Numbered from the stretch's first letter, positions 15,874 through 55,077 are shown. The stretch: 64,000 nt of DNA from an uncultured Gammaproteobacteria bacterium (GCA_964494885.1 CAZBTH010000003.1:5983-69982), one strand, 5' to 3'. Program-made: numbers and translations. The notes: a model not told the origin generated them from the sequence alone.

Positions 15874-15880
15874 ACTTTTG

Positions 15881-15952
15881 TGCCCTCAGAGGGAATTGAA
15901 CCTCCATCTTACCCTTAGGACGGGTCTGCTCTATCCGTTGAGCTATGAGGGC
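15881..15952 (-). tRNA. tRNA-Arg (anticodon CCT)
   Basis: The reverse complement folds as a cloverleaf. Acceptor GCCCTCA/TGAGGGC, anticodon loop GTCCTAA, T-loop TTCAATT. CCA not encoded. Confidence 0.8.
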
Positions 15953-15961
15953 ATATTTACC

Positions 15962-16036
15962 TGGTCGGGGTGCTGGGAATTGAACCCAGTGTCTTTACGT
16001 CCCGAACGTAACGTGATACCGATTCACTACACCCCG
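15962..16036 (-). tRNA. tRNA-Pro (anticodon CGG)
   Basis: Acceptor CGGGGTG/CACCCCG, D-stem GTGA/TCAC, anticodon stem TTACG/CGTAA, loop TTCGGGA, T-arm CTGGG-TTCAATT-CCCAG. CCA encoded. Confidence 0.85.
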
Positions 16037-39726: not shown

Positions 39727-40465
39727 TGATATGTTGAAGTTTGTCCTCATTTTTTTTGTGTTCTCTCTATTCTCTATTCTCTATTCGCTCTTCGCTGTAC
39801 CCGTGCTCGGCCAAGCTGAAATTACATCCCCGAATTATATTATTCAGATGCCAAATTTAAATTCCGGTGCCGGACTCCCCACATCCAGTAATTACAAGGT
39901 CAGTTCAACAATAGGTCAAACTGCCCCAGGGCTATTTTCTTCCGCAGGCTATCGCGTTAAATCGGGATTCCAATACATCTATTCAATAATTCCATTCTCT
40001 TTTACGGTTTCCTCGACTTCGATTAATTTCGGAAGCTTGATTGCCCAAACCCCGTCTACAGCCACAAACACATTAACTGTGAGTAGTGGTGGCGCTGGTG
40101 GATATCAAGTTAAAGCTTCAGAAAATAATCCCCTAAAAATTGGCAGTACTGGAACCACAATCCCTGACACAAACTGTGACATCTCCTGCAGTGAGACCAC
40201 GGCCGGAGTCTGGACTTCGTCTTCCAGGTACGGTTTTGGGTTTAACATGTCCGGAGACGATATTCCGGCTGATTTTACCAACTCAACTTACTACCGTCAG
40301 TTTGCTAATAGAGATGGAGCCGAAAGCCCCCAAATTGTGATGTCGTCGATTTATGTAGGAACAGGCAGACAGTCAACGGTAGCGTACAAAGTAAATATTT
40401 CCGGTATTCAACCGGCGGGTGTTTACAATAATATGATTACATATACAGCTATACCAAGCTACTAA
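39719..40465 (+). CDS. Secreted protein, paralog family A (shared Cys-containing C-terminal domain)
   Basis: N-terminal signal. The C-terminal region (C..C.ETTAG.WT...YGFG...SSIYV...QPAGVY...YTA) matches 41499-42998. Confidence 0.6.
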   Translation: MFNDMLKFVLIFFVFSLFSILYSLFAVPVLGQAEITSPNYIIQMPNLNSGAGLPTSSNYKVSSTIGQTAPGLFSSAGYRVKSGFQYIYSIIPFSFTVSSTSINFGSLIAQTPSTATNTLTVSSGGAGGYQVKASENNPLKIGSTGTTIPDTNCDISCSETTAGVWTSSSRYGFGFNMSGDDIPADFTNSTYYRQFANRDGAESPQIVMSSIYVGTGRQSTVAYKVNISGIQPAGVYNNMITYTAIPSY

Positions 40466-40466
40466 T

Positions 40467-41435
40467 ATGCAAATCTACAAATCTACAAATCTACAAATTA
40501 CAAATAAATTAATTAATTCCAAATTTCAAATATTTATTTGCTTATTTGCTTATTTGCTTATTTGCTTATTTATTGTGCCTAGCCTGGCCTACGGCCAGGA
40601 GGTTTCCCTTTCCATTTCCCCTCCTTTAACGGAAATTGCGATTCAGCCCGGTAAGGATATTAGTCAAACGATTACTGTTAAAAATGATGGTGTTCCGGTA
40701 GTTGTTGTCGCCAAAATGATGCCGTTTGTACCCCTTGATACAAACGGACATGTAGAATTAATCGAGGATCAAACTTCTATTGACGCTTTCTCTTCCTGGT
40801 TTTACTTTGACGAACGCCCCACTCCGCTCGGAGTAAACGGGATTCACCAATACATTATAAAAATTTCTCCCCCGAAATCGGCAGAACTTAGAGACTATTA
40901 CTTTACTTTTGTAGTAGAAGTGCAAAACAATAATAATTTGGAAGTCGGAGTAAATAATACTCAATCCCAAGCAAGAATTGGGGCAAACATATTATTAACC
41001 GCAACCAATGACGGCAACCCGCAAAAAAATGTCTCGATCGTTAAATTTACGGCGCCACGCGTTATCGATTCATTCTCCGGTTTTACCTACCAGGTACTTC
41101 TGGGTAATTCCGGATCAGGGTTCTTTAAACCGGTCGGCAGGATTACAGTCGACCAGATTTTTGGCACGACCACAACATTCAACCTAGCTCCTCTTAACGT
41201 CCTTGTGGGAAGCGAGCGGGAAATTGGTTGCCTTGATGGGCAAGAAATAATTCCTTGTAAACTCCCCGGAAAGTTTTTAATCGGTATTTATAGGGCCAAC
41301 TTAAGTTTTACTGTTGACGGGGTAGGAGAAAGTCACGAAAAACAAATTTACACAGTGGCATTTCCGTTTACTATCCTTTTGGGGCTTGCAACTATAGTGA
41401 TCACTTACGGCATAATAAGAAGACTAAATCCTTAA
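40467..41435 (+). CDS. Cell-surface protein, paralog family B (signal peptide, C-terminal TM anchor)
   Basis: N-terminal MQIYKSTNLQI encoded by 9-nt tandem repeats. The C-terminus has a hydrophobic anchor then RRLNP. Confidence 0.6.
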   Translation: MQIYKSTNLQITNKLINSKFQIFICLFAYLLICLFIVPSLAYGQEVSLSISPPLTEIAIQPGKDISQTITVKNDGVPVVVVAKMMPFVPLDTNGHVELIEDQTSIDAFSSWFYFDERPTPLGVNGIHQYIIKISPPKSAELRDYYFTFVVEVQNNNNLEVGVNNTQSQARIGANILLTATNDGNPQKNVSIVKFTAPRVIDSFSGFTYQVLLGNSGSGFFKPVGRITVDQIFGTTTTFNLAPLNVLVGSEREIGCLDGQEIIPCKLPGKFLIGIYRANLSFTVDGVGESHEKQIYTVAFPFTILLGLATIVITYGIIRRLNP

Positions 41436-41498
41436 TAAATTCAATTTTTTTAATCATATTGTTGACAATAACATGCAGCAGTATGAGAATAATAATAT

Positions 41499-42998
41499 AT
41501 GAACATTAATAGACGGGTATTTGTTTTTTTACCTTTTATTTTTATTGCAACTTTTTTTGCTTCATCGGCCATATCAATTAATAGTGCATACGCCTCAACG
41601 ATGACTTCCGCTTCTGCTACAATGAGCAACTCCAGAATGTCATTTAAGGCGCCTATTAGTTCCGGTTCGGCCGGGAGTTCGCTAGTTACAATAAGTGGCG
41701 CAGTTCCCGATACAACAACAAATCATTTATTCCCCGGAGATGCTGTTTGTTTTACAGATGCAGGCAACAACGTTTGTAGAGATAACACAACATATACAAT
41801 AGCCAATGTACCATCAACAACCACTTTCAATGTAACTACACCGCTTACAACAGCGCTGACAGCAACAGACTATGCAGTTGCTTCGCAATCGGGAACTCTA
41901 ACAATTACAGCAACAACAGTTAACCAGGTTCCCATAGGTGGAAAACTTATCATCACCATTCCGGCTAACGATGGAAATTCTACAGCTAAAAATAATGATG
42001 GAATGCCTGATAGCGCGGCAAGTATTGCCTTAAACGGTTTTGATTTAAGTAGTTTTGCAGTTGCAAGAGCAACTGTAACGGGTGATTCCTGTACTGCCGC
42101 AAATTGGGGCACATCGGGGACCGCAACAGAGTTCACAACCGGCGGCGGCGGAACAACAGATACCACAATTTCCTGGACAAGAGCAACCTCCATATGTGCC
42201 GCAGGTAGTGTTCTTACAATTTCTATTACGGGAATTATCAACCCCGCTCCAATCACAGGACACACTCAAGGAACAGCTGATGTGTATGGCATAACGGTAA
42301 CAACCACAGACAGCTCATCAAATACAATCGATTCGGTTGTTCCAAGAGTTGCACCGGTTGAAGCAGTTCTTATTTCGGCTACAGTTGATGAAAGTTTGAC
42401 TCTTACCATCGCGGGGCTTACAGGAGGCGCTCAAACATATTGTGGTAGTCAGACTTATGTAACAAGTACCGCGACTTCAATTCCGTGGAGTACACAAACC
42501 GGTGGTGCCGGATTTAAATATTCAGCTCAGCAATTGACGGTCAGTACAAACGCCGCATCGGGTTACACTGTGACTCTTCAGGAAAATGATCAAATGGGTA
42601 AAAATGGAAACACTTGCACGGGCACAGCACCTTCTTCCGGAGAATTTACTTTTAGTGCAGGAACTTGCATCAGAGATACCGTTTGTACGGTTTCGGCTTG
42701 CAGTGAATCAACCGCCGGAGATTGGACAACTGCAACAAATTACGGTCTCGGTTATTCACTGGCTTCCCAAAGCGGATCCGATGCCCCCTTCTATTACAAT
42801 GAAAAGAACAGAACATACAGCGCTAAACAATTGGCGGATGTCACACAAGGCGGCGAAACGGCACAATCAATTATGAGCAACTCTGCTGCAGTGTCTGCAA
42901 GCAGTATTTATGTTTGCTATACTTTAAGCATTCCCGGTACACAGCCATCCGGTTATTATTACAATATAGCAAAGTACACAGCAACAGCAACCTTTTAA
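41499..42998 (+). CDS. Secreted Thr/Ser/Ala-rich protein, paralog family A
   Basis: Signal peptide. C-terminal domain shared with 39719-40465. Confidence 0.6.
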   Translation: MNINRRVFVFLPFIFIATFFASSAISINSAYASTMTSASATMSNSRMSFKAPISSGSAGSSLVTISGAVPDTTTNHLFPGDAVCFTDAGNNVCRDNTTYTIANVPSTTTFNVTTPLTTALTATDYAVASQSGTLTITATTVNQVPIGGKLIITIPANDGNSTAKNNDGMPDSAASIALNGFDLSSFAVARATVTGDSCTAANWGTSGTATEFTTGGGGTTDTTISWTRATSICAAGSVLTISITGIINPAPITGHTQGTADVYGITVTTTDSSSNTIDSVVPRVAPVEAVLISATVDESLTLTIAGLTGGAQTYCGSQTYVTSTATSIPWSTQTGGAGFKYSAQQLTVSTNAASGYTVTLQENDQMGKNGNTCTGTAPSSGEFTFSAGTCIRDTVCTVSACSESTAGDWTTATNYGLGYSLASQSGSDAPFYYNEKNRTYSAKQLADVTQGGETAQSIMSNSAAVSASSIYVCYTLSIPGTQPSGYYYNIAKYTATATF

Positions 42999-43021
42999 TT
43001 TAAATAAATAAATCTGCCCAA

Positions 43022-44107
43022 ATGAAAATCTACAAATCTACAAATCTACAAATAAGCAAATTCACACAAGTGATGGTTCTAGCATTTGTTTATTTGCTTA
43101 CTAGTTTATTTGCTTATTCCGTAGTCAAGGCTCAGGACATTCTTCCCCTTACCGTTGTTCCCCCTAAACAAGAAATATTGGTCAATCCGGGTGAAAAGTT
43201 TACCACTACTGTCAAATACCTTAATCAAAGTAGCTCCCCCGTAAACGGAACTGTTAGCGTTCTCGATTTTGTTGTGGAAGATAGTGTTGGGACTCCCGTA
43301 TTCTTAGATAACCCGACGGTGGTTGGCACAACGACAATATCAGCAAAATATTCAGCTGCAAAGTGGATCAGTTTCCCGACAGAAAACGTGACGATTGCAG
43401 GAGGTGCCAATATCGCCGTGCCGGTTACGATCAATGTTCCAAAAAATGCAGCCGCCGGGGGACGTTACGCAGCAATTTTGTTCCAACCCACTGTCAATCA
43501 AGCCGAAAATGGCCAGGAAGGAACGGCCATAACTCCTACTGCAATCAGATTAGCCTCTCTAATTTATATTAGGATTGCAGGACCAATCACGGAAAAAGCC
43601 CGCATCATCGATTTCCAGGCACCAAAGTTTTTGGAATATGGGCCGATCGGTATCTCAACAACAATTCTAAATGAAGGAAGTTACCACATTACTCCCAAGG
43701 GTAATGTCACATTGAGAGATATGTTTGGTCGAGTGATAAGCAATTCCCCATTGGATATAAAGAACATTTTTCCAGGCACCACCAGAGTTTATGACAACAA
43801 TATCGGATCAAGATTAATGCTTGGTAAATTTACAGCCACCCTAAACGCCACCTATGGTGAAAGGGAACAGCTTATTACATCTACCCTCGTTATCTGGTTA
43901 TTTCCATGGAAGGCTGCACTCGCGATCACTCTTGCAATCATCATCGTTATTCTCTTAATCAAAATGTGGTACAAGAGAGTTACCAAAAAGGAAGAAAGAT
44001 TGGCCGAAGAGCTCAAGGAGGAAACAAGCGAACTTGAGGCATTGAAAGCAAAGTTTAAAGATCAAATTAGCAATGACAAGCCGGAAGTCCAAAACCCCCA
44101 ACAGTGA
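43022..44107 (+). CDS. Cell-surface protein, paralog family B
   Basis: N-terminal MKIYKSTNLQI shared with 40467. C-terminal TM helix then a charged tail. Confidence 0.6.
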   Translation: MKIYKSTNLQISKFTQVMVLAFVYLLTSLFAYSVVKAQDILPLTVVPPKQEILVNPGEKFTTTVKYLNQSSSPVNGTVSVLDFVVEDSVGTPVFLDNPTVVGTTTISAKYSAAKWISFPTENVTIAGGANIAVPVTINVPKNAAAGGRYAAILFQPTVNQAENGQEGTAITPTAIRLASLIYIRIAGPITEKARIIDFQAPKFLEYGPIGISTTILNEGSYHITPKGNVTLRDMFGRVISNSPLDIKNIFPGTTRVYDNNIGSRLMLGKFTATLNATYGEREQLITSTLVIWLFPWKAALAITLAIIIVILLIKMWYKRVTKKEERLAEELKEETSELEALKAKFKDQISNDKPEVQNPQQ

Positions 44108-44125
44108 TAGCCTCGTGGGTTCCGA

Positions 44126-45043
44126 ATGAAAATTAAAAATTTTAAATTAAAAATTCGTCAGTCGATTATTATATTCCCCGCAATCATAGTCATTTTAACG
44201 CAGTTTGTTTTATTAAATGACGGTTTGTTCGTCTATGGGCAAACGTTACCGAATTATTCGATTACAGGGCCTTTGGTATCAATCTCCGCAAGTATCGGAT
44301 CTCCAATATTAAAACTTTGGGGATATGGCGCTCCCAATTCAAGAGTTGAACTTAGCGGTGATAAAGTCAGTGACTTTACATATACCAAAGTCGACGGTTA
44401 CTTTGAATTTTCAAAAACATATCTGCCACAAGCGACAGATATTTTCTACCCAGAGCTCTGCTTAACAGAGATTGACCAAACCGGGCGCGCTACCACTCCG
44501 ACCTGTATCCCCAGACTTCTCGCAACGAAAGATAGTTATAATATTGGTCCCGTGATTTTACCACCCACACTAAGTCTTACAGAAGGTGTTATTGACACCA
44601 CTGCGCAATCCGGAGCCAGCGGAATAACTATTCCAAACTCAGAAGTCAGGGTCGTTCTTGCCGAGGACAACAAAAACCTACGTCTCACAAATTTCAACCT
44701 CGTTAAGCCTGTGCTGGCCTATTACATTCCAAATTATACCATCAAATCGGATAGCCAGGGCCATTTCAGTTTTAATATGCCGGGAGTAAACCCTAATGGC
44801 TGGCGTGTCTTTGTTTTTACACACTATTCAGAAGAAGCCAGATCTCCAAAAAGTAATACTCTAAAGTTTGTGATAATTTCCCCTACCGTAAGCGCAATAG
44901 GAAATATCTGGACATTTATCCTTTCTTTGTTTACCCTACCATCACTTATCATTCTTGAAATTGTAGTAATTCTTTTGATCTTTGTGGGAGCCTTTCTGAA
45001 CCGAAGAGACAGAAAGAAAGTATCTCCGAATACTATTAAGTAG
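44126..45043 (+). CDS. Cell-surface protein with signal peptide and C-terminal TM anchor plus basic tail
   Basis: The C-terminus reads ...SLIILEIVVILLIFVGAFLNRRDRKK, a sortase- or exosortase-like tripartite anchor shape without a recognisable sorting motif. Confidence 0.5.
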   Translation: MKIKNFKLKIRQSIIIFPAIIVILTQFVLLNDGLFVYGQTLPNYSITGPLVSISASIGSPILKLWGYGAPNSRVELSGDKVSDFTYTKVDGYFEFSKTYLPQATDIFYPELCLTEIDQTGRATTPTCIPRLLATKDSYNIGPVILPPTLSLTEGVIDTTAQSGASGITIPNSEVRVVLAEDNKNLRLTNFNLVKPVLAYYIPNYTIKSDSQGHFSFNMPGVNPNGWRVFVFTHYSEEARSPKSNTLKFVIISPTVSAIGNIWTFILSLFTLPSLIILEIVVILLIFVGAFLNRRDRKKVSPNTIK

Positions 45044-45076: not shown

Positions 45077-45547
45077 CTAGTCAAATGTGACCGTGGTCTG
45101 CTGGATCAGGTTTATTCCGTCGACTGCGGCTTGAATTATATAAAGGCCGGTTGAAGATTCAGAGGAGATATCAAAAGTGGCCCTCCCCTGAGGGTCTGTA
45201 ACCGGCTGAATTGCCATAACCTGTAACAAATTGCCGCTACCGACAACAACTGTTTTTCCGGAAATTCCCAGGCCACGGTTATCTAAAATAAAAACTGTTA
45301 TTCTAATCTTTTCTCCCCCTGTTTTAGCTCTTAACGGCGAGGCAAAGACATATGAATTTTCCAGAGATAAGTCTTGAGAACCTCCGGATTGGGTTACAGA
45401 AGAAGTCAGAGAATATGCGGAACTTCTAAATAACTGCGGGCCGCGTATAAAATATAATATTAAGATAAGCACAAGCAGCAAAACAACAATAACAATAAGA
45501 GTATAGATCGCATACTTTGGCCACCTAGGCAAATTATTTTCATTCAT
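45077..45547 (-). CDS. Membrane-anchored protein with a bacterial Ig-like (Big/invasin-like) domain
   Basis: TM helix, then KIRITVFILDNRGLGISGKTVVV...ATFDISSESSTGLYIIQAAVDG. Confidence 0.5.
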   Translation of the reverse strand: MNENNLPRWPKYAIYTLIVIVVLLLVLILILYFIRGPQLFRSSAYSLTSSVTQSGGSQDLSLENSYVFASPLRAKTGGEKIRITVFILDNRGLGISGKTVVVGSGNLLQVMAIQPVTDPQGRATFDISSESSTGLYIIQAAVDGINLIQQTTVTFD

Positions 45548-46087
45548 GATATAATTAATACTAAGCTTAATACATACGCATTTGCAAGCATCTAAAAAGT
45601 TAAACCTCACTCCCCTGCCTCCGGTAAATATAATAGCCAAAAGTTCGGTCTAAAAGGAGGGTAATTTTTCCTAGCACTCATTTTCTCCATCTGCTAATCA
45701 CAGCCGTATCGCCGAAGTATAAAAATATAATATAAAATTATTTAAGCAGAGGCTGCAATCGAACATTTTTATAGAGACGTTCTTCTAAAACGATTACATT
45801 CTCCGCAAAAAAATTTGGCAGTAAGTAATAAACGCAGTTTTCCGCAAACTAAACTCCATGCCTGTTTTTTTGGAAGAAAACAGGCATTTATAAACATTAT
45901 AAACGTTATAAAATTTATAAATATTATATTTTCGTGCGGAAAAGACGTGCGTTAATTATACTACAAGTACTGTGAAAGTAAATTCTAATATTTAAAAGGG
46001 ATGATATGGTAAATACCCTTGACAGGCTTGAATAATATTTTAATAATAGTCTAATTAGTATAATTTGTATAATCTAGCCTTAATAAC

Positions 46088-46603
46088 ATGCTCACCAACT
46101 CAATCGATTCGACTCAAAAAAACTTCTTAAAATACCTAGACACTCTTGGTTTATCCCCCAAAACGCATAAAAACTACAGAAGTGATCTCAACCATTTTAT
46201 TGACTGGCTAATATTACACATCAAATCAATGGGATCATACGTTGATACCCTGACTGAGACCGTCCCTTTTTTGAACAAAGACATACCTTTGAAATATAAA
46301 TCGTTCTTAACAGAAAACAATACTCCAATCAAAACAATTAACCGACGCCTCTCCACACTAAGACATTTAACCAGATATTTTGTGATTTCGAATCTAATTA
46401 CCACGGATATTATGGAGGATATTGAAAATATAAGCTCAGGGAATAAGGTAATAAAAAATATATCAGCTCCCATAGTTGATGCATTCCGAATGCATCTTGA
46501 AACCGAAAAAGTTTCTAAAAACACCGTCAAAAATTATGTAAGCGATATTAGACAATTTTTGTCATGGCTAGAAAAAACAAATTCGTCAAATCTGACCAGT
46601 TAG
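46088..46603 (+). CDS. Integrase-type SAM-like (core-binding) domain repeats; probably the frameshifted N-terminus of the following giant ORF
   Basis: FLKYLDTLGLSPKTHKNYRSDLNHFIDWL...TINRRLSTLRHLTRYFV matches the phage-integrase N-terminal SAM-like domain. A second copy starts at IVDAFRMHLETEKVSKNTVKNYVSDIRQFLSWLEK and is completed in the next ORF. Confidence 0.6.
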   Translation: MLTNSIDSTQKNFLKYLDTLGLSPKTHKNYRSDLNHFIDWLILHIKSMGSYVDTLTETVPFLNKDIPLKYKSFLTENNTPIKTINRRLSTLRHLTRYFVISNLITTDIMEDIENISSGNKVIKNISAPIVDAFRMHLETEKVSKNTVKNYVSDIRQFLSWLEKTNSSNLTS

Positions 46604-46613
46604 TCTAATTTAC

Positions 46614-49600
46614 ATGGACAAACTACCAAAACTAACATCGAAAATAATCAAATCCTATCAAAATGAGATTGCCAGAAGTGATTCGGCCGCAACCGCAAAG
46701 AGAAAAATAGTTTCTTTGAAAAAATTTCTTGATTGGGCAAAAACCAAAGGCCTTATAGATATAAATTTGGAAGAGACAATCATTACTCAGGCTAAAAACG
46801 AAACAAAATTCCCCGCAAAAAAAGCGTTAAATATCAGATTCCAGAACTTATACAAAAGATATCGCAATATACCAGGAACTTCTTATTTGAATATTGCAAT
46901 ACTTGTAATCCTATCCTCCACCTTAGGACTCGGTATATACAATCAATTCTTTAAAAACGCCACAAACCCATTTGCTGCAACGTCTTTAGTTCGACCTAAC
47001 CGCTATCTTTCTTTTCAGGGCAGATTAACTAATCAATTTTTGAATCCGGTTACAGCTGTAACAAGTGTAGTTTTTACTCTATATGACGCGGCAAGCTCCG
47101 GTACCACGCTTTGGACCGGCACCTGTAATGTAACTCCGGATACGGATGGGGTTTTTTCAACCCTTCTTGGAAGCGACTGCGGTTCGGAGATTTCCAGTAG
47201 TGTTTTTTCTGACAATGCCAGTGTTTGGCTGGGAGTTAAAGTCGCAGCAGACGCTGAGGCCACCCCCAGAATCCAGATTGCAACTGTTGCCTATGCCCTA
47301 AATTCGGAAACTCTTCAGGGATACCCGGCCTCTTCAAGTGCAACAATTAACACAGTGCCCGTGGTCAACAACTCAGGACAAATTGTCTTGGCGGTGAGCT
47401 CCCCTAAAATTCAATCCACGACAGGTACCTTTGCAATCGAAGGGCAGGCCATAACAATACAAACTCCAAGTGCATCAAATGGTAATGTTACTATAGCACC
47501 GGATGGCACGGGACAGCTTAACTTGACATTTACAGGCGCCTCCCCGGGGTCTGGAACCGGAATGGTGAACGCAACCGACGCCAACTTAACCTCCGGTTCC
47601 TTGTATTACGGTTCGGTTGCTTCTGACGCATCAGGTTACAACCTTTTGCAGTTACAATCCGGATCCACTCTTTCCAATAAATTCGTAGTCGATTCAGCCG
47701 GAAACGCATCTGCATCGGGTGATTTAACTTTGGCGGGAGTTAGTTCGATCCAAACAACAACATTTAGTCCCCTTACCATTGGCGGAAGTACAACAGGAAA
47801 TATAGTACTATCACCATCAAACAATATCGCGGGGGGCAATGTTTCGCCTGGAGTTACAAATGTGACCGATCTAGGAACCGCTTCCCTCTTGTTTAGGAAT
47901 ATTTATGCAACAACTTTGTACCAAGGCGTCAACCAAGTCTGTGATGCCGGGGGTGGGGTTGCAGGATGCGCAGGCGCAAACTACTGGAGACTTGCCAATA
48001 ATGTCCTTTCCCCTATCCAAGTTGCATATGATTTGACAATCGGCGGAAGCGCAACAGGTAGCGCCTTCCAGGTTTATGCCGCAACGGGAAATGTGGCTTC
48101 AGCCGGAGTAGGACAATTTGGTAGTACCTCGGTGTCAACCTATTCGAGGTTTGGGTCAGCAACTACAGAGCATTCTCTTTCTTCAGCCAGCGATCTCTTG
48201 GTAAACGGAAAGTTGGAACTTAACGATACTCTCTTTCTCGACGGAGGAACAATTGCAAACTCTGCAGGCACGGGAACTATTACTTTTTCCCCTACACCAA
48301 CAACAGCCTCCAACGCCCTTTCCGCAAGCAACTGGCTTATAGAAAATACCGCCAATGTTGGTCAAGCGGCCCTTATGGTTAATCAGGTAAAAGGTGGGGA
48401 TATTTTTACAGCCTCTCAATCAGGAATTCCCGTATTTACGGTGGCCCACCTGGCAGGTACAGTGGCTAACGGCATAACTTTAACTGGTGCGGCTACAGGC
48501 AGCGGCCCAACCATAACAGCAACCGGTTCCGACACAAACATAGCACTTTCCATAGATTCAAAGGGTACCGGAGCATTAAATTTGAATAATACTGCAACAG
48601 GGGATATTCTCTTGGCAGGAGGAGTTGGAGCAACGGGATGCACACTAACCAACTCCACCGGCGCGCTTTCTTGCGCTGGAAACATATCAACAACTGCCAC
48701 AAGTGGAACTCAAGGCTGGTGGCAGCGTGTTGCCGGTAACCTATCTCCGATTAATCTTAATGATACTATTTCTGCCACCACCTCGGCCGCTACAGCCATG
48801 ACCATCACCCAAACCGGCGCTTTCGACGCTTTCTTGGTACAAGACGCGGCTGGTGACACCACTCCATTTGTCATCGACCAATCGGGCAACGTCGGCATTG
48901 GTGACACCACTCCAAGTTATTTACTTGATGTTGCAGGTACTCTTAATTCAACGGGAAGCACCACGCTTGGAACCGGAGCTTCTTCAGTTAATGTTATTGG
49001 TTCTACCACCACTCCAGGAACATTAACTTTACATGGAGCTACAACTCTAGACGACACTTTCACAGTATCTGGAAATAACTTAACATCTCTAGGAGGCAAT
49101 CTCACTCTTAGCGGTACCACAATTACCGCTTCCTCGCTTGCTACACTAACAACTTCATCTGCAGTTGCTTGGGGTGGGGCTACCGAGCTTACCTTTACTG
49201 CTGATAACGCAACTATCTATGGATCGAATGCTGCTAGTGGAAACCTTATTCTTGATGGGACTAGTAATGCTACAAAAACTTCCAGTTATGTGATTATCCA
49301 ACCAAATGGTGGCAACGTCGGAATCGGTACTTCTGCACCTACGGCTACATTAGAAATATTAGCTGATGTTGATACTCCTTCAGGTAACGCCATAGAGGTT
49401 CAAGCGGTCGAATCAGCTAATCTTAACGACCAAGATGCTGATGATATTACTTTCACAAATGCTACAACATGCTGGACATACGGTGCCGGCTGGGCTCGTT
49501 CTGGTGGGACGGCCCTTCATTCCGCGTTAGTAGGTACTGAAAATTTATCTTGCAATTTAACAGACGGCTATATTGATAATAATCAAATATATAGAATGAC

Positions 49601-51497
49601 TTTTGATATGGGAGGAAGAACAGCTGGCACTGTCACTCCAAAAGTTGGAACGGCAGCTCACGATGCAATTAGTGCTAATGGTTCATACGATCTTACCTTC
49701 GACGCTACAGCTAATAATACAGATATAATTTTTACTCCTGACATTAATTTTAACGGTTATATTGATAATGTTTATATCTATCGAAGAGCCGTCAATACTG
49801 TTATTTCTGATACTGGAAGAGTGGGTATTGGACGAGCAACACCTGCATACTTTCTTGATGTTTTGGCTCCGGAAAATGGAGTCATTGCCAGATTCTTAAG
49901 TGACAACACCACTGGTTGTACTTTGGCAACTGGAGGTACTATTTCTTGTACTTCAGATGTCCGGCTAAAACAGGATATTGAAGACACTTCTTTTGGCCTA
50001 GATACTATTATGAACTTAAGACCAGTAGATTTTAACTGGAAAAGCGGAGCTTCAATTTATAAAAACCTTGGTTTTATTGCCCAAGAAGTTGAAACGCTTA
50101 TCCCTAATCTGGTTAACGTTGATCAAGATAATGGTTACAAACAACTCAATACAACAGGGCTTATTCCTGTCCTCACAAAAGCTATACAAGAACAGCAAAT
50201 ACAAATTTCTACCCTCTCCACCCAACTCGCGGATTTAAAGATCAATTCTACAGGCGATATCACTTTATCCGGTAATCCAGTTTCCGGTTATACTGTCTCT
50301 ACTCCTATCGGCATTACTCAAAAAATTGGTGCTTTTGCCAATTTAGTTGCTGCAAATATACACGCAGGGGCGCTGATTACTGATGAACTGCTTACTGATA
50401 AACTGAATGCGGTTGTAGCAACAGTTCAAAAGCTGACAACTAATAGTTTAGCGGTTAAACTGATATCCCCTCTTCCTGATCAAACTGACGTTACAGTAAA
50501 ACTCGGAGGTGAGGCAACACCATCAGGAAAACTGGCGATTCAAAACTCACAAGGTGATGAAGTGGCTGCTATCGATTCGTCTGGCAACGCAACATTCTCC
50601 GGTACAGTAAACAGTAACCAGTTAACAGTAAACAGTGAAGCAACTATTTCCGGAACTCTTTTTGCAGACAACATAAAATCAAAAAGTCTGGATGAAATTC
50701 AAGCACTTTTGACAAAAGTCCAGACTGACCAGGGTCTTCTAAAGGACGCTCAAAGCTGGAACACCAACACCGCAACAAACTCAGCAACTCTCTCAGGTCT
50801 TTCCGCCAGTGATCTATATATAACAAACCAGGCCGCAATTAATTCACTGTCTATTTCTAAAACTTTAGCTGTCGGTTCTGATCTTGTATTTAGTTCCTCA
50901 GTCAACAGTGAACAGTCAACAGTGAACAGCATTGACACTTTGTCTGCTCCACTTCGGATTCAGAGTTTGACAATGGCACCAGTTGAGCTTATGGCCGGAC
51001 TTGTAACAATAGATACACACGGAAATGTTACGATCGGCGGAGACTTGAATGTAGCAGGCAGAATACACTCCTCCGGTCTAACCTTGCAAGGAACAAACTT
51101 ACAAGATGACAAAATTCTTAATCTCCAAAGTCAAACCGGAATCCTGGTCGCCTCGGTGGACGCAAGTGGATCGGCCGAATTCGAATCAGTTTATACTCCC
51201 CAACTTATTATTGCGGGGGCTGACGCAACAACCCCAGGTGCTGTGGTAAACGGAGCAACAACAACAAACTCAACAATCGGACATACGATAATACCGGCAG
51301 GAACAAATGAGATAACAATTATCAATCCCAAGGTTACCGACTATACCCTAATCTATGTGACACCAACCTCGTCAACCCAAAATAATGTATTATATGTAAA
51401 GAGCAAACAAAAAGGACAATTCACAGTTGGATTTGCAATCCCGATTGATACAGACGTCTCATTCAATTGGTGGATAGTCCAGGTACAAAAATGGTAA
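46614..51497 (+). CDS. Giant (1627 aa) membrane-anchored surface fibre protein with an internal S74 endosialidase-chaperone-like domain
   Basis: N-terminal SAM-like half-domain (SKIIKSYQNEIA...SLKKFLDWAKTKGLI), TM helix, Thr/Gly/Ser/Ala-rich beta-rich repeats. SDVRLKQDIEDTSFGLDTIMNLRPVDFNWKSGASIYKNLGFIAQEVETLIPNLV...GYKQLNTTGLIPVLTKAIQEQ matches the S74 intramolecular chaperone domain. Confidence 0.7.
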   Translation: MDKLPKLTSKIIKSYQNEIARSDSAATAKRKIVSLKKFLDWAKTKGLIDINLEETIITQAKNETKFPAKKALNIRFQNLYKRYRNIPGTSYLNIAILVILSSTLGLGIYNQFFKNATNPFAATSLVRPNRYLSFQGRLTNQFLNPVTAVTSVVFTLYDAASSGTTLWTGTCNVTPDTDGVFSTLLGSDCGSEISSSVFSDNASVWLGVKVAADAEATPRIQIATVAYALNSETLQGYPASSSATINTVPVVNNSGQIVLAVSSPKIQSTTGTFAIEGQAITIQTPSASNGNVTIAPDGTGQLNLTFTGASPGSGTGMVNATDANLTSGSLYYGSVASDASGYNLLQLQSGSTLSNKFVVDSAGNASASGDLTLAGVSSIQTTTFSPLTIGGSTTGNIVLSPSNNIAGGNVSPGVTNVTDLGTASLLFRNIYATTLYQGVNQVCDAGGGVAGCAGANYWRLANNVLSPIQVAYDLTIGGSATGSAFQVYAATGNVASAGVGQFGSTSVSTYSRFGSATTEHSLSSASDLLVNGKLELNDTLFLDGGTIANSAGTGTITFSPTPTTASNALSASNWLIENTANVGQAALMVNQVKGGDIFTASQSGIPVFTVAHLAGTVANGITLTGAATGSGPTITATGSDTNIALSIDSKGTGALNLNNTATGDILLAGGVGATGCTLTNSTGALSCAGNISTTATSGTQGWWQRVAGNLSPINLNDTISATTSAATAMTITQTGAFDAFLVQDAAGDTTPFVIDQSGNVGIGDTTPSYLLDVAGTLNSTGSTTLGTGASSVNVIGSTTTPGTLTLHGATTLDDTFTVSGNNLTSLGGNLTLSGTTITASSLATLTTSSAVAWGGATELTFTADNATIYGSNAASGNLILDGTSNATKTSSYVIIQPNGGNVGIGTSAPTATLEILADVDTPSGNAIEVQAVESANLNDQDADDITFTNATTCWTYGAGWARSGGTALHSALVGTENLSCNLTDGYIDNNQIYRMTFDMGGRTAGTVTPKVGTAAHDAISANGSYDLTFDATANNTDIIFTPDINFNGYIDNVYIYRRAVNTVISDTGRVGIGRATPAYFLDVLAPENGVIARFLSDNTTGCTLATGGTISCTSDVRLKQDIEDTSFGLDTIMNLRPVDFNWKSGASIYKNLGFIAQEVETLIPNLVNVDQDNGYKQLNTTGLIPVLTKAIQEQQIQISTLSTQLADLKINSTGDITLSGNPVSGYTVSTPIGITQKIGAFANLVAANIHAGALITDELLTDKLNAVVATVQKLTTNSLAVKLISPLPDQTDVTVKLGGEATPSGKLAIQNSQGDEVAAIDSSGNATFSGTVNSNQLTVNSEATISGTLFADNIKSKSLDEIQALLTKVQTDQGLLKDAQSWNTNTATNSATLSGLSASDLYITNQAAINSLSISKTLAVGSDLVFSSSVNSEQSTVNSIDTLSAPLRIQSLTMAPVELMAGLVTIDTHGNVTIGGDLNVAGRIHSSGLTLQGTNLQDDKILNLQSQTGILVASVDASGSAEFESVYTPQLIIAGADATTPGAVVNGATTTNSTIGHTIIPAGTNEITIINPKVTDYTLIYVTPTSSTQNNVLYVKSKQKGQFTVGFAIPIDTDVSFNWWIVQVQKW

Positions 51498-53416
51498 AAA
51501 CATTAGAAGAAATCCAAAAATACATCCTTTACATAATAATAGCGATATTCCCTATTTTTATATTCATTAGCTCGACCTCACCCGAAGTTCTTTCTAAATT
51601 GATATTGCTCGCAATCGGCATAACTATCGTCATGGCAACTTGGATCATTAGAATGATCATAACCGGCAACATATCTTTCCATACAGGCAAATTTGATCTA
51701 GGAGTTCTTCTTATAACCCTCGCTTATGTTCTTTCGGGGATATTTAGGACCAATAACAAACCTGAGGCTTTCTTTATGCCCGGTACAGCCTCTTTTGTGG
51801 TTGCTCTGGCGATAATTTATTTCTTAATAAATCAACTGGATAAAAAAGCTAAAACAGAGTCTTTAGTTTCATTTTTTACTTCCGGTATATTCCTTTCTTT
51901 ATCCGTAATCTTTAGCGAACTTGAAATATTTACAAAAATTCCTCAACTTCCCGCATTTATAAAAAGTGTGTCATTTAACCCACTCGGAGGAATTTTACCG
52001 TCAATAATCTATCTGGTTCCGACGGCGCTTATCGGGATTTCGTTAATTATAAAGGACAGTGATATCGTCAAAAGGGTTTTTTGGATTGTGGCAAACGCCT
52101 TAGTTGTTATGGCTATGATAATTCTGATCGGAAAGTCATTCCCCGGAAATGTCCAATCACCGAAATTTCCAAGCCTACAGACTTCTTGGGAGGTTGCAGT
52201 TGGAACTGTTGCAAAAAACCCGATTTTTGGAATAGGTGCGGGAAATTACTTAACCGCGTTCAATCTTTATCGCCCTGTTACTTATAATCAAACAGATCTC
52301 TGGTCAGTTAAGTTTTCAACAGCAAGCAATTTTTATCTGACTACGATCACTGAAACCGGTTTATTAGGATTGGCCACCTTGGCCTTTTTACTGTTAAGTA
52401 TTCTCAGATTCTTTGCGCACTCCCTGACTGCAAAAAACATGAATGAGGCATTAAGTGAAGGTCTGGAAAAGCTGGCTATTGCCGCCATTGTTATAATCCT
52501 GGCATTTTACCCCGCCTCCCCCATATTTGTGATCTTTCCGCTTTTTGTTCTTTTGGGTGTATTTTCGAAATCGGAAACCAAAACTTTTACTGCCTCAAAT
52601 ACAAAATTTGCAACAATTACGATTGGAATTATTTTGGGAATAGGAGTCGCTCTTGCCAATTTCTTTGGAGCCAAGGCGGTCATTGCCGAAGCCACATTTA
52701 AAAAATCCCTTGACTCTCTCAGTAAAAATGACGCAAAACAAACTTTTGATTTAATGCAAAAGTCAATACAAGGAAACTCCGGAATTGACAGATATCACGC
52801 CTCCCTCGCCCAGGTTGACATGGCTCTTGCACAATCAATCGCAAACAAGAAAGACATTACAGATTTCGACAAAAATACAATTACCCAACTGGTACAGCAG
52901 GCAATCACAGAAGGTAAAGCAACTGTTGCCCTCAACCCCGAAAGATCGGGCAACTGGGAGGTGTTGGCACAGGTATATCGAAGTGTAATGCCATTTGCTA
53001 CCGGTGCCGATCAATTCACGATTCAATCTTATTCTCAGGCAATAGCATTAGATCCAATAAATCCAAATCTACGAATAGCATTGGGTGGTGTTTATTACGC
53101 CCAGGGGCGCTACGACGATGCTGTCGATGTCTTTAAGCTTGCCATTCTCGCAAAACCGGACCTTGCTAACGCCCATTACAATTTGGCAATGACCTATAAG
53201 GCAAAGAGGGAATATGCCAAAGCAATAACCGAGATGAATTTGGTCCTATCTCTGGTTGCCAAAGATTCAGACGACTACAAATTGGCAAAAAGTGAACTCG
53301 ATAATTTGATGAAAGATAAACCGGTTTCTGTCAATACTGTCGACGGGCAGGGTCAGTTGACTGCCCCACAATCTGTAAATCCCAGCAATATCAAGCCACC
53401 AATTCCCCTTCCCTGA
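51491..53416 (+). CDS. O-antigen ligase/polymerase-family (Wzy_C-like) membrane protein with C-terminal TPR repeats
   Basis: Many TM helices. NPIFGIGAGNYL is a Wzy_C-like loop. C-terminal TPR repeats (AHYNLAMTYKAKREYAKAI). The ATG overlaps the stop of the giant ORF. Confidence 0.65.
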   Translation: MVKTLEEIQKYILYIIIAIFPIFIFISSTSPEVLSKLILLAIGITIVMATWIIRMIITGNISFHTGKFDLGVLLITLAYVLSGIFRTNNKPEAFFMPGTASFVVALAIIYFLINQLDKKAKTESLVSFFTSGIFLSLSVIFSELEIFTKIPQLPAFIKSVSFNPLGGILPSIIYLVPTALIGISLIIKDSDIVKRVFWIVANALVVMAMIILIGKSFPGNVQSPKFPSLQTSWEVAVGTVAKNPIFGIGAGNYLTAFNLYRPVTYNQTDLWSVKFSTASNFYLTTITETGLLGLATLAFLLLSILRFFAHSLTAKNMNEALSEGLEKLAIAAIVIILAFYPASPIFVIFPLFVLLGVFSKSETKTFTASNTKFATITIGIILGIGVALANFFGAKAVIAEATFKKSLDSLSKNDAKQTFDLMQKSIQGNSGIDRYHASLAQVDMALAQSIANKKDITDFDKNTITQLVQQAITEGKATVALNPERSGNWEVLAQVYRSVMPFATGADQFTIQSYSQAIALDPINPNLRIALGGVYYAQGRYDDAVDVFKLAILAKPDLANAHYNLAMTYKAKREYAKAITEMNLVLSLVAKDSDDYKLAKSELDNLMKDKPVSVNTVDGQGQLTAPQSVNPSNIKPPIPLP

Positions 53417-54000: not shown

Positions 54001-55077
54001 TCACGGCAATGTTTCTGGGGGGGTTGAACCGGAATGGATTTGGTGCTCTTTGGTGGCGCCCTCTTTATATCCACCAATCTTGGAGATACGGACGGCGATT
54101 ATCAGAAATCCCAGAAACGCAAGCCCCGCCAAACCCAGGTTTGTGAAATAAAATGGAGTAAGAAATTCTAAAGCGTCGATTGCCGGAGTCGTAACAACCA
54201 ACATCCAATGATGATTTCCAACTACAATCGGTGAAGCGGCAATCAAAAACCGCGTCAATACTCCGTTTTTGTTTTCGTCTGGTAATGCAATGTCCAATTT
54301 GAACTCATCGTCGGACAAAAACGCATTTTTCAGTTTTTGTACCAACAAGTCGCTCCCCACAATCCCGGATTTAGTCAGATAATCAAAGTAATTTATTCCA
54401 ACAAGTTCTTTAGCAGGACCTGAAAAAATTACTCCGTTCTGATCAAATAAATATACTCTTGTGTTGTTGGTAATTTTTAACGAATCCAAATAATAAGATG
54501 TTATTTCATCCAACAGGAACGAGGATACAAAAACACCACTGAATTTACCGCCTCTTATGATTGGAGATGCCACAGGAACTACATATCTTCCACTCGCAAA
54601 GCCAATTTTAGATTGGACCGGACTTCCGATAAGGACATCTCCACCCTTGGCGGTCTTTGCCCACATAAAGTACTGTCTATCGGATAAGTCTATCCCTTTT
54701 CCGGTCGGTCCTTGACGATCAAAACCATATTTAACGACACCAGAACCGTCCACGACAACAGCACCCGACACGGATGTATTTTTCCAGCTCTTGACAAACA
54801 TTTCCAAATCTTTTTGTTCGATCTGAGATAAAATGTCGATTCGATTTGAAAACGATGACACTTGATTGCCAAAACTACTCACGAACACTTTTAAGGCGAT
54901 TGATCCGGACCTTGCCGCAACCTGTTCACGGTGAAGCATTTGTTCAACCAAGTTGTCTGCAGCAGCCTTATTCAAAAAAAGGTAGATGACGCCGGCAAAG
55001 AGAATCATTAAAACCCCGAATAGAACAAAAATGTTGTTGTAAGTTTTGAAGAGTATATTTAGAACACCTTTTATCAC
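54001..55077 (-). CDS. Cache-like extracellular sensor domain protein flanked by two TM helices, no output domain
   Basis: Periplasmic region YFMWAKTAKGGDVLIGSPVQSKIGFASGRYVVPVASPI is typical of a Cache ligand-binding fold. Confidence 0.5.
   Translation of the reverse strand: MIKGVLNILFKTYNNIFVLFGVLMILFAGVIYLFLNKAAADNLVEQMLHREQVAARSGSIALKVFVSSFGNQVSSFSNRIDILSQIEQKDLEMFVKSWKNTSVSGAVVVDGSGVVKYGFDRQGPTGKGIDLSDRQYFMWAKTAKGGDVLIGSPVQSKIGFASGRYVVPVASPIIRGGKFSGVFVSSFLLDEITSYYLDSLKITNNTRVYLFDQNGVIFSGPAKELVGINYFDYLTKSGIVGSDLLVQKLKNAFLSDDEFKLDIALPDENKNGVLTRFLIAASPIVVGNHHWMLVVTTPAIDALEFLTPFYFTNLGLAGLAFLGFLIIAVRISKIGGYKEGATKEHQIHSGSTPPETLP

Follow-up and report, generated by a model that had tools for sequence, protein, structure and literature searches.

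Domains of the S74 family act as intramolecular chaperones and can cleave the proteins that carry them. In phage endosialidases and tail fibres, such as K1F endoNF and S16 gp37 (6f45), the domain corresponds to PF13884, has the motifs SDxxxK, which supplies the catalytic Ser-Lys dyad, and GFIAQE, is followed by a long helix, and is released by trimer-dependent autoproteolysis as a C-terminal chaperone of ~150 amino acids. The mosaic adhesive trimer (MAT) fibres of Bdellovibrio (PMC10769870) are secreted, surface-bound proteins that start with a signal peptide, beside which lies a conserved beta-rich module of ~130 amino acids; a fibre that varies among paralogues and orthologues follows, and an S74 domain with SDxxxK is terminal in some members and absent from others. 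Myelin regulatory factor, or MYRF (PMC3742443, PMC8326128), is a single-pass membrane protein with an internal S74/ICA domain and a DNA-binding domain on the same side of the membrane, and its cleavage frees a transcription factor. Regulators of the ToxR/CadC type combine an N-terminal cytoplasmic DNA-binding-type domain, a single transmembrane helix and an extracytoplasmic domain, and tyrosine recombinases (XerC/D, phage integrases) have an N-terminal core-binding domain of four helices and a C-terminal catalytic domain (PF00589) with the active site R-K-H-R-H/W-Y.

The two genes described here, ORF1 and ORF2 (Table 1), lie in a stretch of 64,000 nucleotides that we call the window. They are a conserved gene pair of tiny groundwater bacteria (Woesebacteria), and each encodes half of one integrase-type domain. 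Their core-binding domain resembles that of tyrosine recombinases in Pfam profile and in fold, but it is duplicated, split and tethered to the membrane, and no catalytic domain accompanies it. The S74 domain of ORF2 shares the profile, motifs and following helix of the phage chaperones, but it is not C-terminal: it belongs to a cellular, membrane-anchored protein in which cleavage is putative, and 412 amino acids follow where phages release a terminal chaperone. As in MATs, a beta-rich module comes after the export signal and a variable shaft comes next. However, in place of a cleavable signal peptide ORF2 has half a SAM domain within ~90 cytoplasmic residues and then a transmembrane anchor, its S74 domain precedes a family-specific module instead of being terminal, and the N-terminal module is spread over two genes.

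The first-pass annotation of this DNA regarded an internal S74 domain as an undescribed architecture, a claim that MYRF contradicts. Unlike in MYRF, the transmembrane helix of ORF2 (aa 91-113) lies between the cytoplasmic SAM module and the extracellular S74 domain (aa 1114), so the SAM-like module cannot be set free by cleavage at S74, and this topology rules out a MYRF-like liberation of a DNA-binding module. The likeness to ToxR/CadC-type regulators is one of analogy only; the DNA-binding fold is different and a giant fibre replaces the sensor domain. The family itself appears to be undescribed: none of the papers that our literature searches listed describes proteins with SAM-like domains, a transmembrane helix and a fibre in CPR bacteria, and the family goes unmentioned in the Omnitrophota 'giant genes' preprint.

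Table 1. Features of the ORF1-ORF2 locus; positions are counted from the first nucleotide of the window.
Feature	Position	Strand	Description
Small Big_1/Invasin_D3-like membrane protein	45077..45640	-	divergent, conserved upstream neighbour
Promoter-like site TTGACA-17-AATAAT	46019..46047	+	best in search, 11/12 match, ~40 nt 5' of ORF1 ATG
TGTATAAT motif	~46061-46068		upstream of ORF1 ATG
ORF1	46088..46603	+	171 aa, small cytoplasmic protein without TM segment; SAM-like domain 1 and helices 1-2 of SAM-like domain 2
SAM-like domain 1, tyrosine-recombinase core-binding type, complete	46121..46378	+	PF02899 (Phage_int_SAM_1), ORF1 aa 12-97, profile 3-78/83
SAM-like domain 2, first half (helices 1-2)	46475..46597	+	up to ORF1 stop; PF13495, ORF1 aa 130-170 = profile 2-42/85
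Intercistronic spacer, 10 nt	46604..46613	+	corresponds to low-confidence loop of SAM-like domain 2 (AF2)
ORF2	46614..51497	+	1627 aa, giant N-in single-pass membrane protein
SAM-like domain 2, second half (helices 3-4)	46629..46748	+	PF02899, ORF2 aa 6-45 = profile 42-82/83
Transmembrane helix	46884..46952	+	ORF2 aa 91-113, mean Kyte-Doolittle hydropathy 1.8
Membrane-proximal beta-sandwich 'stem' module	46995..47327	+	PNRYLSFQGRLT ... LNSETLQGYP
Variable Thr/Gly/Ala/Ser-rich shaft	47394..49913	+	ORF2 aa 261-1100
S74 intramolecular-chaperone/self-cleavage domain and helical extension	49953..50258	+	PF13884
Family-conserved C-terminal module	50259..51494	+	412 aa; coiled-coil helices, beta segments, terminal beta-sandwich
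Downstream multi-pass membrane protein	51491..53416	+	Wzy_C-like region, C-terminal TPRs

An integrase-type domain divided between two genes

Pfam searches and a conceptual merge of the two products confirm that ORF1 encodes one and a half SAM-like domains and that the missing half opens ORF2. SAM-like domain 1 is modelled by AF2 as helices spanning residues 8-100 (pLDDT >90), and Foldseek matches its fold to 3nrw and 2kd1 with probability 1.0. The first half of SAM-like domain 2 corresponds to AF2 helices 128-139 and 144-164, and the second half to helices 184-197 and 200-219 in merged numbering (pLDDT 82-91). By itself the half-domain in ORF2 gives a weak Pfam match (E 0.016); in the merged sequence SAM-like domain 2 is complete (profile 2-82/83, E 5e-17). 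The AF2 model of this domain was built on an artificial ORF1-ORF2 fusion, and in it both halves pack as a four-helix domain with the split located within a low-confidence loop. In the half-domain of ORF2, R30 is invariant and Y15 nearly so across 29 relatives of the split, fused and single-SAM types.

The presence of two core-binding-type domains without a recombinase catalytic domain, as first predicted, is also upheld by Pfam. The core-binding-domain profiles PF02899, PF13495 and PF13102 score above cut-off, and ORF1, ORF2 and the merged protein have no match to the catalytic domain (PF00589) at E<=0.1. Integrase N-terminal-domain folds (3nrw, 2kd1, 4a8e, 1ma7) were recovered by Foldseek, although the local similarities found in fold searches, whether to integrase N-domains, MG/Ig folds or fibre tips, are used here as support only. 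Since no catalytic domain is present and a fibre follows the transmembrane helix, the NCBI name 'site-specific integrase' is a mis-annotation.

Fused and split forms among relatives

The family occurs at no fewer than 362 locations in species-representative genomes, almost all of them Microgenomates. Our census covers 81 species-level loci and the window, or 82 copies. Fused forms account for 35 of these, 23 others carry one SAM domain, and in a further 23 the split falls in the same loop. The merged N-terminus aligns with fused homologues over 95-100% of its length. The merged protein of ~1800 amino acids that the first-pass annotation reconstructed therefore has real counterparts among relatives, but the clade of the window keeps two genes.

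The same pair of genes is present in each of the five closest relatives at species level (L011-L015), with the ORF1 stop just past a conserved 'W-L-E' helix and the ORF2 ATG just ahead of 'LPxIT'. Their spacers are 0, 15, 3, 10 and 8 nt long and their frames are the same or different; in L011, L012 and L013 both ORFs share a frame, with one stop between them. In split copies generally, ORF1 ends 2-12 residues past the conserved W and the start codon of ORF2 is always ATG. Where the halves are adjacent, the spacer ranges from -11 to about +125 nt and every frame relation occurs: among 14 such relatives and the window, in which ORF2 is in the +1 frame relative to ORF1, five pairs share a frame and ten do not (chance expectation 1:2). 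An AAAGGAG Shine-Dalgarno sequence inside ORF1 lies 7-8 nt before the ORF2 ATG in L016, L017 and L019. The halves are 250-820 nt apart in eight far-split relatives, and six of these loci contain an identifiable inserted gene, which is NYN-domain or 23S-rRNA-IVS-protein-like. Linkage and orientation of the halves are kept in 23/23 split copies.

A stable hairpin lies just 3' of the ORF1 stop in clade 3. Around the inserted genes we found no convincing terminal inverted repeats, and a mobile element between the halves was therefore not delimited; in L021 and L043 the search yielded a hairpin just after the ORF1 stop. An Rfam scan of four relatives with long spacers found nothing at the junction.

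Split copies fall into at least four clades of a neighbour-joining tree, in which the six members of the window's clade are all split and their sister, L001, is fused. This tree, built from 258 columns, is rooted at the midpoint and carries no support values; how many fissions were independent, and whether some copies are re-fusions, is therefore uncertain.

ORF1 is under purifying selection in the window's clade. It is intact in 6/6 genomes, and dN/dS is 0.065-0.15 in five of 15 pairs, dS being saturated in the other ten. An exhaustive search of 1.84 billion cluster representatives returned 946 ORF1 matches; ~113 of the best 150 of these 946 are stand-alone proteins of 145-215 amino acids, and most stand-alone proteins among those 150 align essentially end to end.

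The junction itself is reproducible. Seven independently fetched loci, which come from five samples (JGI, Logan) and several assemblers, share its exact sequence, an ENA contig and another JGI sample also contain its 60-nt core, and the 1627-aa ORF2 product is called identically in independent assemblies. Sequencing error is rejected because exact-protein look-ups return the same two ORFs in many assemblies, with identical DNA.

Origin of the split

The varied frames and spacers, the inserted genes, the purifying selection and the stand-alone ORF1 relatives indicate a two-cistron operon, not an error, a pseudogene or a recoding site. The two-gene state is real, old and recurrent, and it is under purifying selection with no frame relation conserved. 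Very probably, ORF1 and ORF2 are genuine co-transcribed genes that arose by fission of a gene kept whole in other Microgenomates.

The wide separation of the halves in eight relatives, usually with another gene between them, also fits two independent genes whose products do not complement each other, in which case ORF1 would work alone as a small factor that binds DNA or protein, and the two helices left in ORF2 would be a vestigial cytoplasmic tail. The clade 3 hairpin could uncouple expression of the two genes, and for 23 relatives one SAM domain suffices. Nonetheless, we consider such independence unlikely: the signature residues of the ORF2 half-domain are kept in split and fused forms alike, no split copy has lost linkage or orientation, and AF2 packs the four helices of the merged sequence confidently. 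Moreover, a two-helix fragment and a protein of one and a half domains would probably each be unstable alone.

Programmed recoding, by a +1 frameshift at AGU-UAG-U or by stop read-through, would yield the fused ~1800-aa protein as at least a minor product. A +1 shift would work only within 8 nt (46596-46603, CCAGTTAG), and this segment contains the 0-frame stop, as in RF2-type sites; a single stop separates the in-frame ORFs of L011, L012 and L013, and the fused form is clearly functional elsewhere. However, there is no homopolymer in CCAGTTAG and the segment is not conserved in relatives, and recoding is therefore rejected as the main mechanism, although it may still occur at a low level. A programmed frameshift gene is likewise rejected across the relatives, which have neither a conserved shift site nor a conserved frame relation, the 5:10 ratio of frames being that of chance. 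The spread of spacer lengths, the insertion of whole genes, and the ATG that every split ORF2 has for itself, in three relatives with its own Shine-Dalgarno sequence, further make recoding a very improbable account of the locus.

That a single gene was cut by a frameshift, whether a sequencing or assembly error or a recent pseudogenising indel, was the first-pass interpretation, and it draws on the +1 change that cuts the domain in two within the same 8 nt, on the fused homologues, and on the L001 giant gene, which is broken at another place in an assembly that appears from its contig names to be based on long reads, but it is now extremely improbable, as relatives have two conserved genes in varied frames (the same split in all five closest species and 22 relatives overall), hundreds of ORF1-sized relatives stand alone, the junction is identical across samples and assemblers and has no homopolymer, and ORF1, intact in six species, has low dN/dS in every estimable pair, which also rejects a pseudogene.

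Anchor, stem and shaft of ORF2

The domain identities along ORF2 and the conserved gene neighbourhood are firmly established. The predicted transmembrane helix holds up as the single such segment of ORF2; AF2 places a helix at 264-289 (merged numbering), and the 30 amino acids before the segment include 8 K/R and 1 D/E, a positive-inside flank.

Conservation within the family is highest in the stem module, which contains invariant motifs. AF2 predicts strands with pLDDT 82-91 in an MG/Ig-like fold. ORF2 aa 117-264 are 40% identical to residues 44-193 of P0039, and aa 132-240 are 38% identical to residues 31-138 of P0053, both of which are S74-terminated 'tail fiber domain-containing' proteins. 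The MAT-type likeness of the stem comes from these alignments (38-40%).

The shaft is composed of T15/G13/A12/S10 % and holds four of the five closely spaced Cys pairs of ORF2. Its earlier description as Thr/Gly/Ser-rich repeats is right as to composition but not as to repeats: self-BLASTP finds no internal protein repeats at E<1e-3, and TRF detects only four short arrays inside the gene (31-34 nt, period 7-15), which give no repeat architecture. Shaft content varies strongly among relatives. Even copies with 91%-related N-termini differ in the middle region and in whether they carry S74, which L012 lacks.

S74 domain and C-terminal module

The internal S74 domain proposed at the outset is well supported. 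Peptidase_S74 (PF13884) matches ORF2 aa 1114-1167 over profile positions 1-57/58, scoring 49.4 bits where 22 is the cut-off, the chaperone domain of phage S16 gp37 (PDB 6f45) matches with E 4e-6, and the motif SDVRLK (SDxxxK) is intact at 49953-49970 (ORF2 aa 1114-1119). The helical extension corresponds to AF2 helix 90-116 of the C-terminal model. SD(x)3K is present in most family members with S74, and in every S74-bearing member the S74 region is trailed by 280-540 amino acids. The domain is internal because the 412-aa tail is the family's conserved C-terminal module, which most complete relatives have at their very C-terminal end whether or not they carry S74 (in L012, E 2e-130).

The last ~80 amino acids of this module are modelled with pLDDT >90. 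Neither of two multi-domain AF2 models has a PDB match at E<1e-3; among the weak fold matches of the module, the best-ranked are, with few exceptions, fibres of phages, pyocins or Bdellovibrio (Bd2439). By analogy and from such weak fold matches, none at E<1e-3, the fibre and C-terminal module may make contact with a host or surface. The high conservation of the module is unexpected for a variable receptor-binding tip.

Expression signals and neighbouring genes

The promoter-like site upstream of ORF1 is suggestive only, because the total number of such sites is not above shuffle expectation. No terminator-like site was found between ORF1 and ORF2, and in the window neither a promoter nor a Shine-Dalgarno site is evident for ORF2. 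The missing Shine-Dalgarno site is uninformative, since such sites are rare in the window (3/29 genes). An Rfam scan of the window found two tRNAs and nothing else.

The likely ATG of the downstream gene, 51491, overlaps the ORF2 stop. Of its first-pass assignment as an O-antigen-ligase/TPR protein, the overlap and the TPRs, whose matches are strong, are retained, but Wzy_C scores 25.9 bits, under the cut-off of 31.7. A homologue lies 3' of the giant gene in 12 relatives' loci, at most ~160 nt from its end in 8 of the 12, and the Big_1/Invasin_D3-like gene lies just upstream on the opposite strand in 35. The giant fibre gene adjoins a conserved cluster that encodes secreted and membrane-anchored proteins. 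This cluster may be the Pam pilus operon that was lately reported from CPR bacteria together with an adjacent 'tail fibre-like protein' (bioRxiv 10.64898/2026.03.03.709456).

Proposed mechanism

Under the fission explanation, gene 1 produces a 171-aa cytoplasmic protein with one full core-binding four-helix domain and helices 1-2 of a second. Gene 2 produces an N-in membrane protein whose cytoplasmic tail opens with helices 3-4 of that second domain, and whose exterior consists, in order, of the Ig/MG-like stem, the shaft, S74 with its Ser-Lys motif, and the 412-aa C-terminal module. In a genome largely without Shine-Dalgarno sequences, ORF2 is presumably translated by independent or termination-coupled initiation. 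The half-domains may come together again without a covalent link, which would dock ORF1 onto the fibre's cytoplasmic tail. The cytoplasmic module would probably bind DNA or a partner protein rather than recombine DNA. By analogy with known fibres, the exterior may form a trimeric fibre for contact with host cells or surfaces, and S74 may cleave off the C-terminal 514 amino acids after folding.

A bolder idea, which we regard as a long shot, is that docking at the split core-binding domain is reversible. By supplying the missing part of the half-domain on the fibre tail, ORF1, a small protein of DNA-binding type, would be kept at the membrane, and it would be released or recruited when the fibre engages a host cell.

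Implications for CPR bacteria

Public records label this family 'site-specific integrase', when in fact its members are membrane-anchored, giant, phage-fibre-like surface proteins, and they therefore inflate the numbers of integrases and mobile elements that are counted in CPR genomes. The ORF1/ORF2 pair is also a warning for automated 'frameshift/pseudogene' calls. It provides a natural example of a domain split in mid-fold into two genes, repeatedly at the same loop, and with fused, split and insertion-bearing states all extant the family offers good material for work on gene fission and fragment complementation.

Ultra-small CPR bacteria are believed to spend their lives attached to other cells. 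Given this lifestyle, a conserved giant fibre beside a conserved cluster of membrane and secreted proteins is a prime candidate for host contact. If the docking switch were real, an episymbiotic CPR bacterium would have built a contact-sensing device from the DNA-binding domain of a recombinase and a phage-type fibre, and selection for such a switch would account for repeated fission at that one loop, in some cases accompanied by inserted selfish genes or a hairpin.

Two genes divide one SAM-like domain

ORF1, which encodes a small cytoplasmic protein, and ORF2, which encodes a giant membrane-anchored fibre protein, lie exactly where the first-pass annotation placed them, and ORF2 begins 10 nt past the ORF1 stop in the +1 frame relative to ORF1. 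According to Pfam, ORF1 contains a complete Phage_int_SAM_1 domain (aa 12-97) together with a second SAM-like domain of which just the first half is present (aa 130-170, profile positions 2-42 of 85). The other half opens ORF2 (aa 6-45, profile positions 42-82 of 83); it is a weak match alone (E = 0.016), and conceptual merging of ORF1 and ORF2 yields a full second domain (E = 5e-17), bearing out the proposal of one and a half domains in ORF1 with the remainder in ORF2.

Profile searches matched both Phage_int_SAM and Peptidase_S74, and Pfam and sequence analysis agree with the same annotation that ORF2 has a TM helix and an S74 domain and that a recombinase catalytic domain is not found in ORF1 or ORF2. 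The single TM helix (aa 91-113) has a Lys/Arg-rich flank on its N-terminal side, and the positive-inside rule predicts an N-in topology. The S74 domain (aa 1114-1167; 49.4 bits against a cut-off of 22) carries the Ser-Lys motif SDVRLK, of the form SDxxxK, and is similar to the chaperone domain of phage S16 gp37 (PDB 6f45, E = 4e-6). Between the TM helix and S74, the proposed Thr/Gly/Ser-rich composition holds, with enrichment of Thr, Gly, Ala and Ser, although the proposed repeats were not detectable in a repeat search. All 10 cysteines of ORF2 fall in five close pairs (aa 171/189, 443/452, 676/687, 953/980 and 1102/1112), a pattern that fits local disulfide bonds in a fibre outside the cytoplasm.

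Coordinates of features in the window and in relatives' loci (L numbers are handles for loci in species-level genomes)
Feature	Location	Strand	Remarks
ORF1	46088-46603		171 aa
ORF2	46614-51497		1627 aa
Run of secreted or membrane-anchored protein genes upstream	38974-45043; 45077-45640	+; -	no Pfam match; kept in up to 62 relatives' loci
dCache_1 membrane sensor-domain protein	54001-55077	-	
Leucyl-tRNA synthetase	35568-38126	-	also adjoins the locus in L001
tRNA-Arg(CCT) and tRNA-Pro(CGG)	15880-16036	-	
NYN-domain insert	L021:2038-2877; L035:4020-4598; L045:9371-9958		Pfam E 1e-16 to 1e-25
23S_rRNA_IVP-like four-helix-bundle insert	L043:9324-9983; L053:1183-1725; L057:9418-10017		weak, all below Pfam cut-off
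Hairpin spacer directly after ORF1-like stop	L039:9870-9982; L056:9893-9982; L028:3734-3857		one clade
Similar hairpins	L021:2055-2144; L043:9360-9407		
Giant gene broken further downstream into overlapping ORFs	L001:10001-19850		636, 1346 and 1317 aa
Giant gene broken further downstream into overlapping ORFs	L015:9980-19776		two ORFs

The split is conserved among relatives

With the merged N-terminus as query, many Patescibacteria proteins span it as one polypeptide, and many diverged proteins have their initial Met precisely at the ORF2 start position. We fetched 80 species-representative loci from 362 GTDB-genome matches, nearly all Microgenomates, and used local HMMs, one part ORF1-like and the other the ORF2 N-terminus, to score them. 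Together with L001 and the window these make 82 copies: 35 are fused, 23 have a single SAM domain ahead of the TM helix, 23 are split at this same loop, and one is unclear. All six members of the window's clade (the window and L011 to L015) are split, with ORF1 intact in each, and their sister L001 is fused.

Many MAGs with the Microgenomates-type locus (among them L017-L019, L023, L024 and L031) are titled "uncultured Gammaproteobacteria/Pseudomonadales bacterium", and single MAGs with the locus are titled "Bathyarchaeia", "Nevskiaceae", "Vitreimonas" or "Limisphaerales"; such titles are probably taxonomic mislabels or reflect contaminated bins. The downstream breaks in the giant genes of L001, whose record contig_28718 suggests long-read assembly, and L015 may represent either true frameshift errors or additional fissions.

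Within split copies, the ORF1 stop always falls 2 to 12 residues beyond the conserved Trp that closes helix 2, and every ORF2 is provided with a separate ATG, a few residues ahead of helix 3. L011 has a spacer of 0 nt (TAAATG); L012-L015, like the window, have one of 3-15 nt; and in L016, L017 and L019, where an AAAGGAG Shine-Dalgarno site lies within ORF1, the value is -11 nt. A longer spacer of 90-125 nt, folding into a stable hairpin, occurs in L028, L039 and L056. Same and different frames occur in a ratio of 5:10, the chance expectation.

The first-pass annotation read the sequence largely correctly, but its headline, that one gene is interrupted by a frameshift through sequencing error, pseudogenization or recoding, is wrong. 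A single indel could join the two frames at only one site, 46596-46603. Gene calls identical to the 171-aa and 1627-aa products appear on 9-10 contigs of different samples (JGI, Logan, ENA); this genome is carried by Rifle-type groundwater samples, and the ENA contig belongs to PRJNA292723. Seven fetched loci share the same junction DNA, and two further ones share its 60-nt core. Over their full length three fetched loci equal the window, and another shows 2 differences in 7944 bases. The recurrence of the split at the same loop in 23 of 82 copies also speaks against a single broken gene. In the window's clade, ORF1 has dN of 0.15-0.45; dS is saturated in 10 of 15 pairs, and the remaining five give dN/dS of 0.065-0.15. 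Stand-alone relatives of ORF1 size are abundant: when 1.84 billion cluster representatives were searched exhaustively with phmmer, 946 relatives emerged, and among the best 150 about 113 are 145-215 aa long, mostly matched near end to end. Junction identity, the survey, the varied frames and other junction anatomy, selection and the ORF1 family thus exclude sequencing error and recent pseudogenization. Programmed frameshifting to join ORF1 and ORF2 is left with no conserved feature to act on and is very unlikely. ORF1 and ORF2 are very probably a conserved two-gene arrangement under selection.

Insertions and expression signals at the junction

At eight split loci the halves are 250-820 nt apart, and in six of these a gene is inserted. 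The inserted small genes sit exactly between the halves of the split domain, which suggests that insertions repeatedly target the site encoding the loop. The clade's spacer hairpins have folding energies of -39 to -46 kcal/mol (z of -4 to -5), and 0 of 200 shuffles were as stable. L039 and L056 have hairpin sequence in common (GGTGGACC...GGTGGTCCACC), and the hairpin spacer has no match in Rfam. The hairpin could serve as an attenuator or for processing, or could be what is left of a MITE/IVS-like element where the fission occurred. Recurrent splitting at this one loop, occasionally accompanied by an NYN gene, an IVS-protein gene or a hairpin, gives a hint that the splits were driven by insertions there; a mobile element sought at the split site could not be delimited.

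Only 3 of 29 window genes have a Shine-Dalgarno-like motif, and many have a TATAAT-like box 5-20 nt ahead of the ATG (for example, genes at 7802-9076, 14680-15873 and 16687-17685, and ORF1), which suggests leaderless or very-short-leader mRNAs in this organism. Because the genome rarely uses such sites, the missing Shine-Dalgarno site at ORF2 carries no weight. The best promoter-like site is directly upstream of ORF1, and no terminator-like site was found between ORF1 and ORF2. The most economical reading is that the two would be co-transcribed, with coupled or independent initiation.

Predicted structure and modular organization

An AlphaFold2 (AF2) model of the merged N-terminus, built with an alignment of fused homologues, contains two four-helix domains, with pLDDT above 90 for domain 1 and about 82-91 for both halves of domain 2. 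The split falls in a low-confidence loop (residues 165-183), and domain 2 is followed by amphipathic helices, the TM helix and a beta-sandwich. Foldseek matches the model to integrase N-terminal domains (3nrw, TM 0.75; 2kd1; archaeal Xer; Cre) and the sandwich to MG/Ig-like domains; these similarities are local, with none at E<1e-3 for the whole model. The stem module that forms the sandwich (PNRYLSFQGRLT ... LNSETLQGYP) is the most conserved part of the family, and is 38-40% identical to the extreme N-terminal module of S74-bearing "tail fiber domain-containing" proteins of other bacteria.

The 412 aa after S74 correspond to a C-terminal module that is conserved throughout the family, common in metagenomes, and positioned at the very C-terminal end in most complete relatives with or without S74. 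Only some relatives have S74 itself; in these it is never terminal, being followed by 280-540 aa, and SDxxxK is mostly kept. L012 is 91% identical to ORF2 over the first 300 residues, yet is without S74, so the shaft is a mosaic between conserved ends. For the C-terminal 537 aa, AF2 predicts the S74 fold with a long helix, two more long helices that suggest coiled-coil structure, and, with confidence, a beta-sandwich at the end. Fold matches to this model are weak, and the best-ranked are nearly all phage, pyocin or Bdellovibrio fibres.

Genomic neighbourhood

Homologues of the upstream 499-aa, 361-aa and 305-aa proteins occur in 61, 62 and 34 relatives' loci, respectively, and a divergent Big_1-like gene is found in 35. 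Both the 361-aa and the 305-aa protein combine a hydrophobic N-terminal segment with a C-terminal TM helix, and weak Ig-like hits were obtained for the former. A Wzy_C-like/TPR membrane protein is encoded downstream of the giant gene in 12 loci, at most ~160 nt from its end in eight. A CPR-specific "Pam" pilus, described in a 2026 preprint and found in Saccharimonadia and Microgenomatia, has chaperones with C-terminal TM helices, and a protein resembling a tail fibre consistently co-localises with its operon (10.64898/2026.03.03.709456). The cluster upstream in the window may be a Pam pilus operon and ORF2 its tail-fibre-like protein.

Possible function and relation to known proteins

From these features we infer that the ORF1 product would dock onto the ORF2 tail, completing the four-helix domain. 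With help from S74 and the C-terminal module, the ORF2 ectodomain would form a trimeric fibre for contact with a host or a surface. S74 may cleave the chain ahead of Ser1114, with the resulting 514-aa fragment freed or staying associated. More speculatively, the neighbouring Wzy_C-like protein, whose Pfam match is below the cut-off, might glycosylate the Ser/Thr-rich shaft. The cytoplasmic core-binding module is incapable of DNA recombination; it could tether DNA, act in regulation or bind a partner.

Several identities were rejected: an integrase, since the catalytic domain is absent, and a canonical S74 tail-spike, since S74 does not lie at the end and the protein belongs to a cell. MYRF provides a precedent for an internal S74 domain (PMC3742443, PMC8326128), and a MYRF-like mechanism was rejected because the TM helix parts the SAM module from S74. 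The likest known proteins are bacterial S74/MAT-type fibre adhesins. Where these have a signal peptide, the giant protein has a TM anchor and one or two cytoplasmic recombinase core-binding domains; it also has a family-specific C-terminal module, and its gene shows repeated mid-domain fission. A family combining SAM-like domains, a TM helix and a fibre is not described in the literature searched. ORF1 and ORF2 apparently represent an undescribed and mis-annotated family of CPR surface proteins with an unusual split-domain organization.
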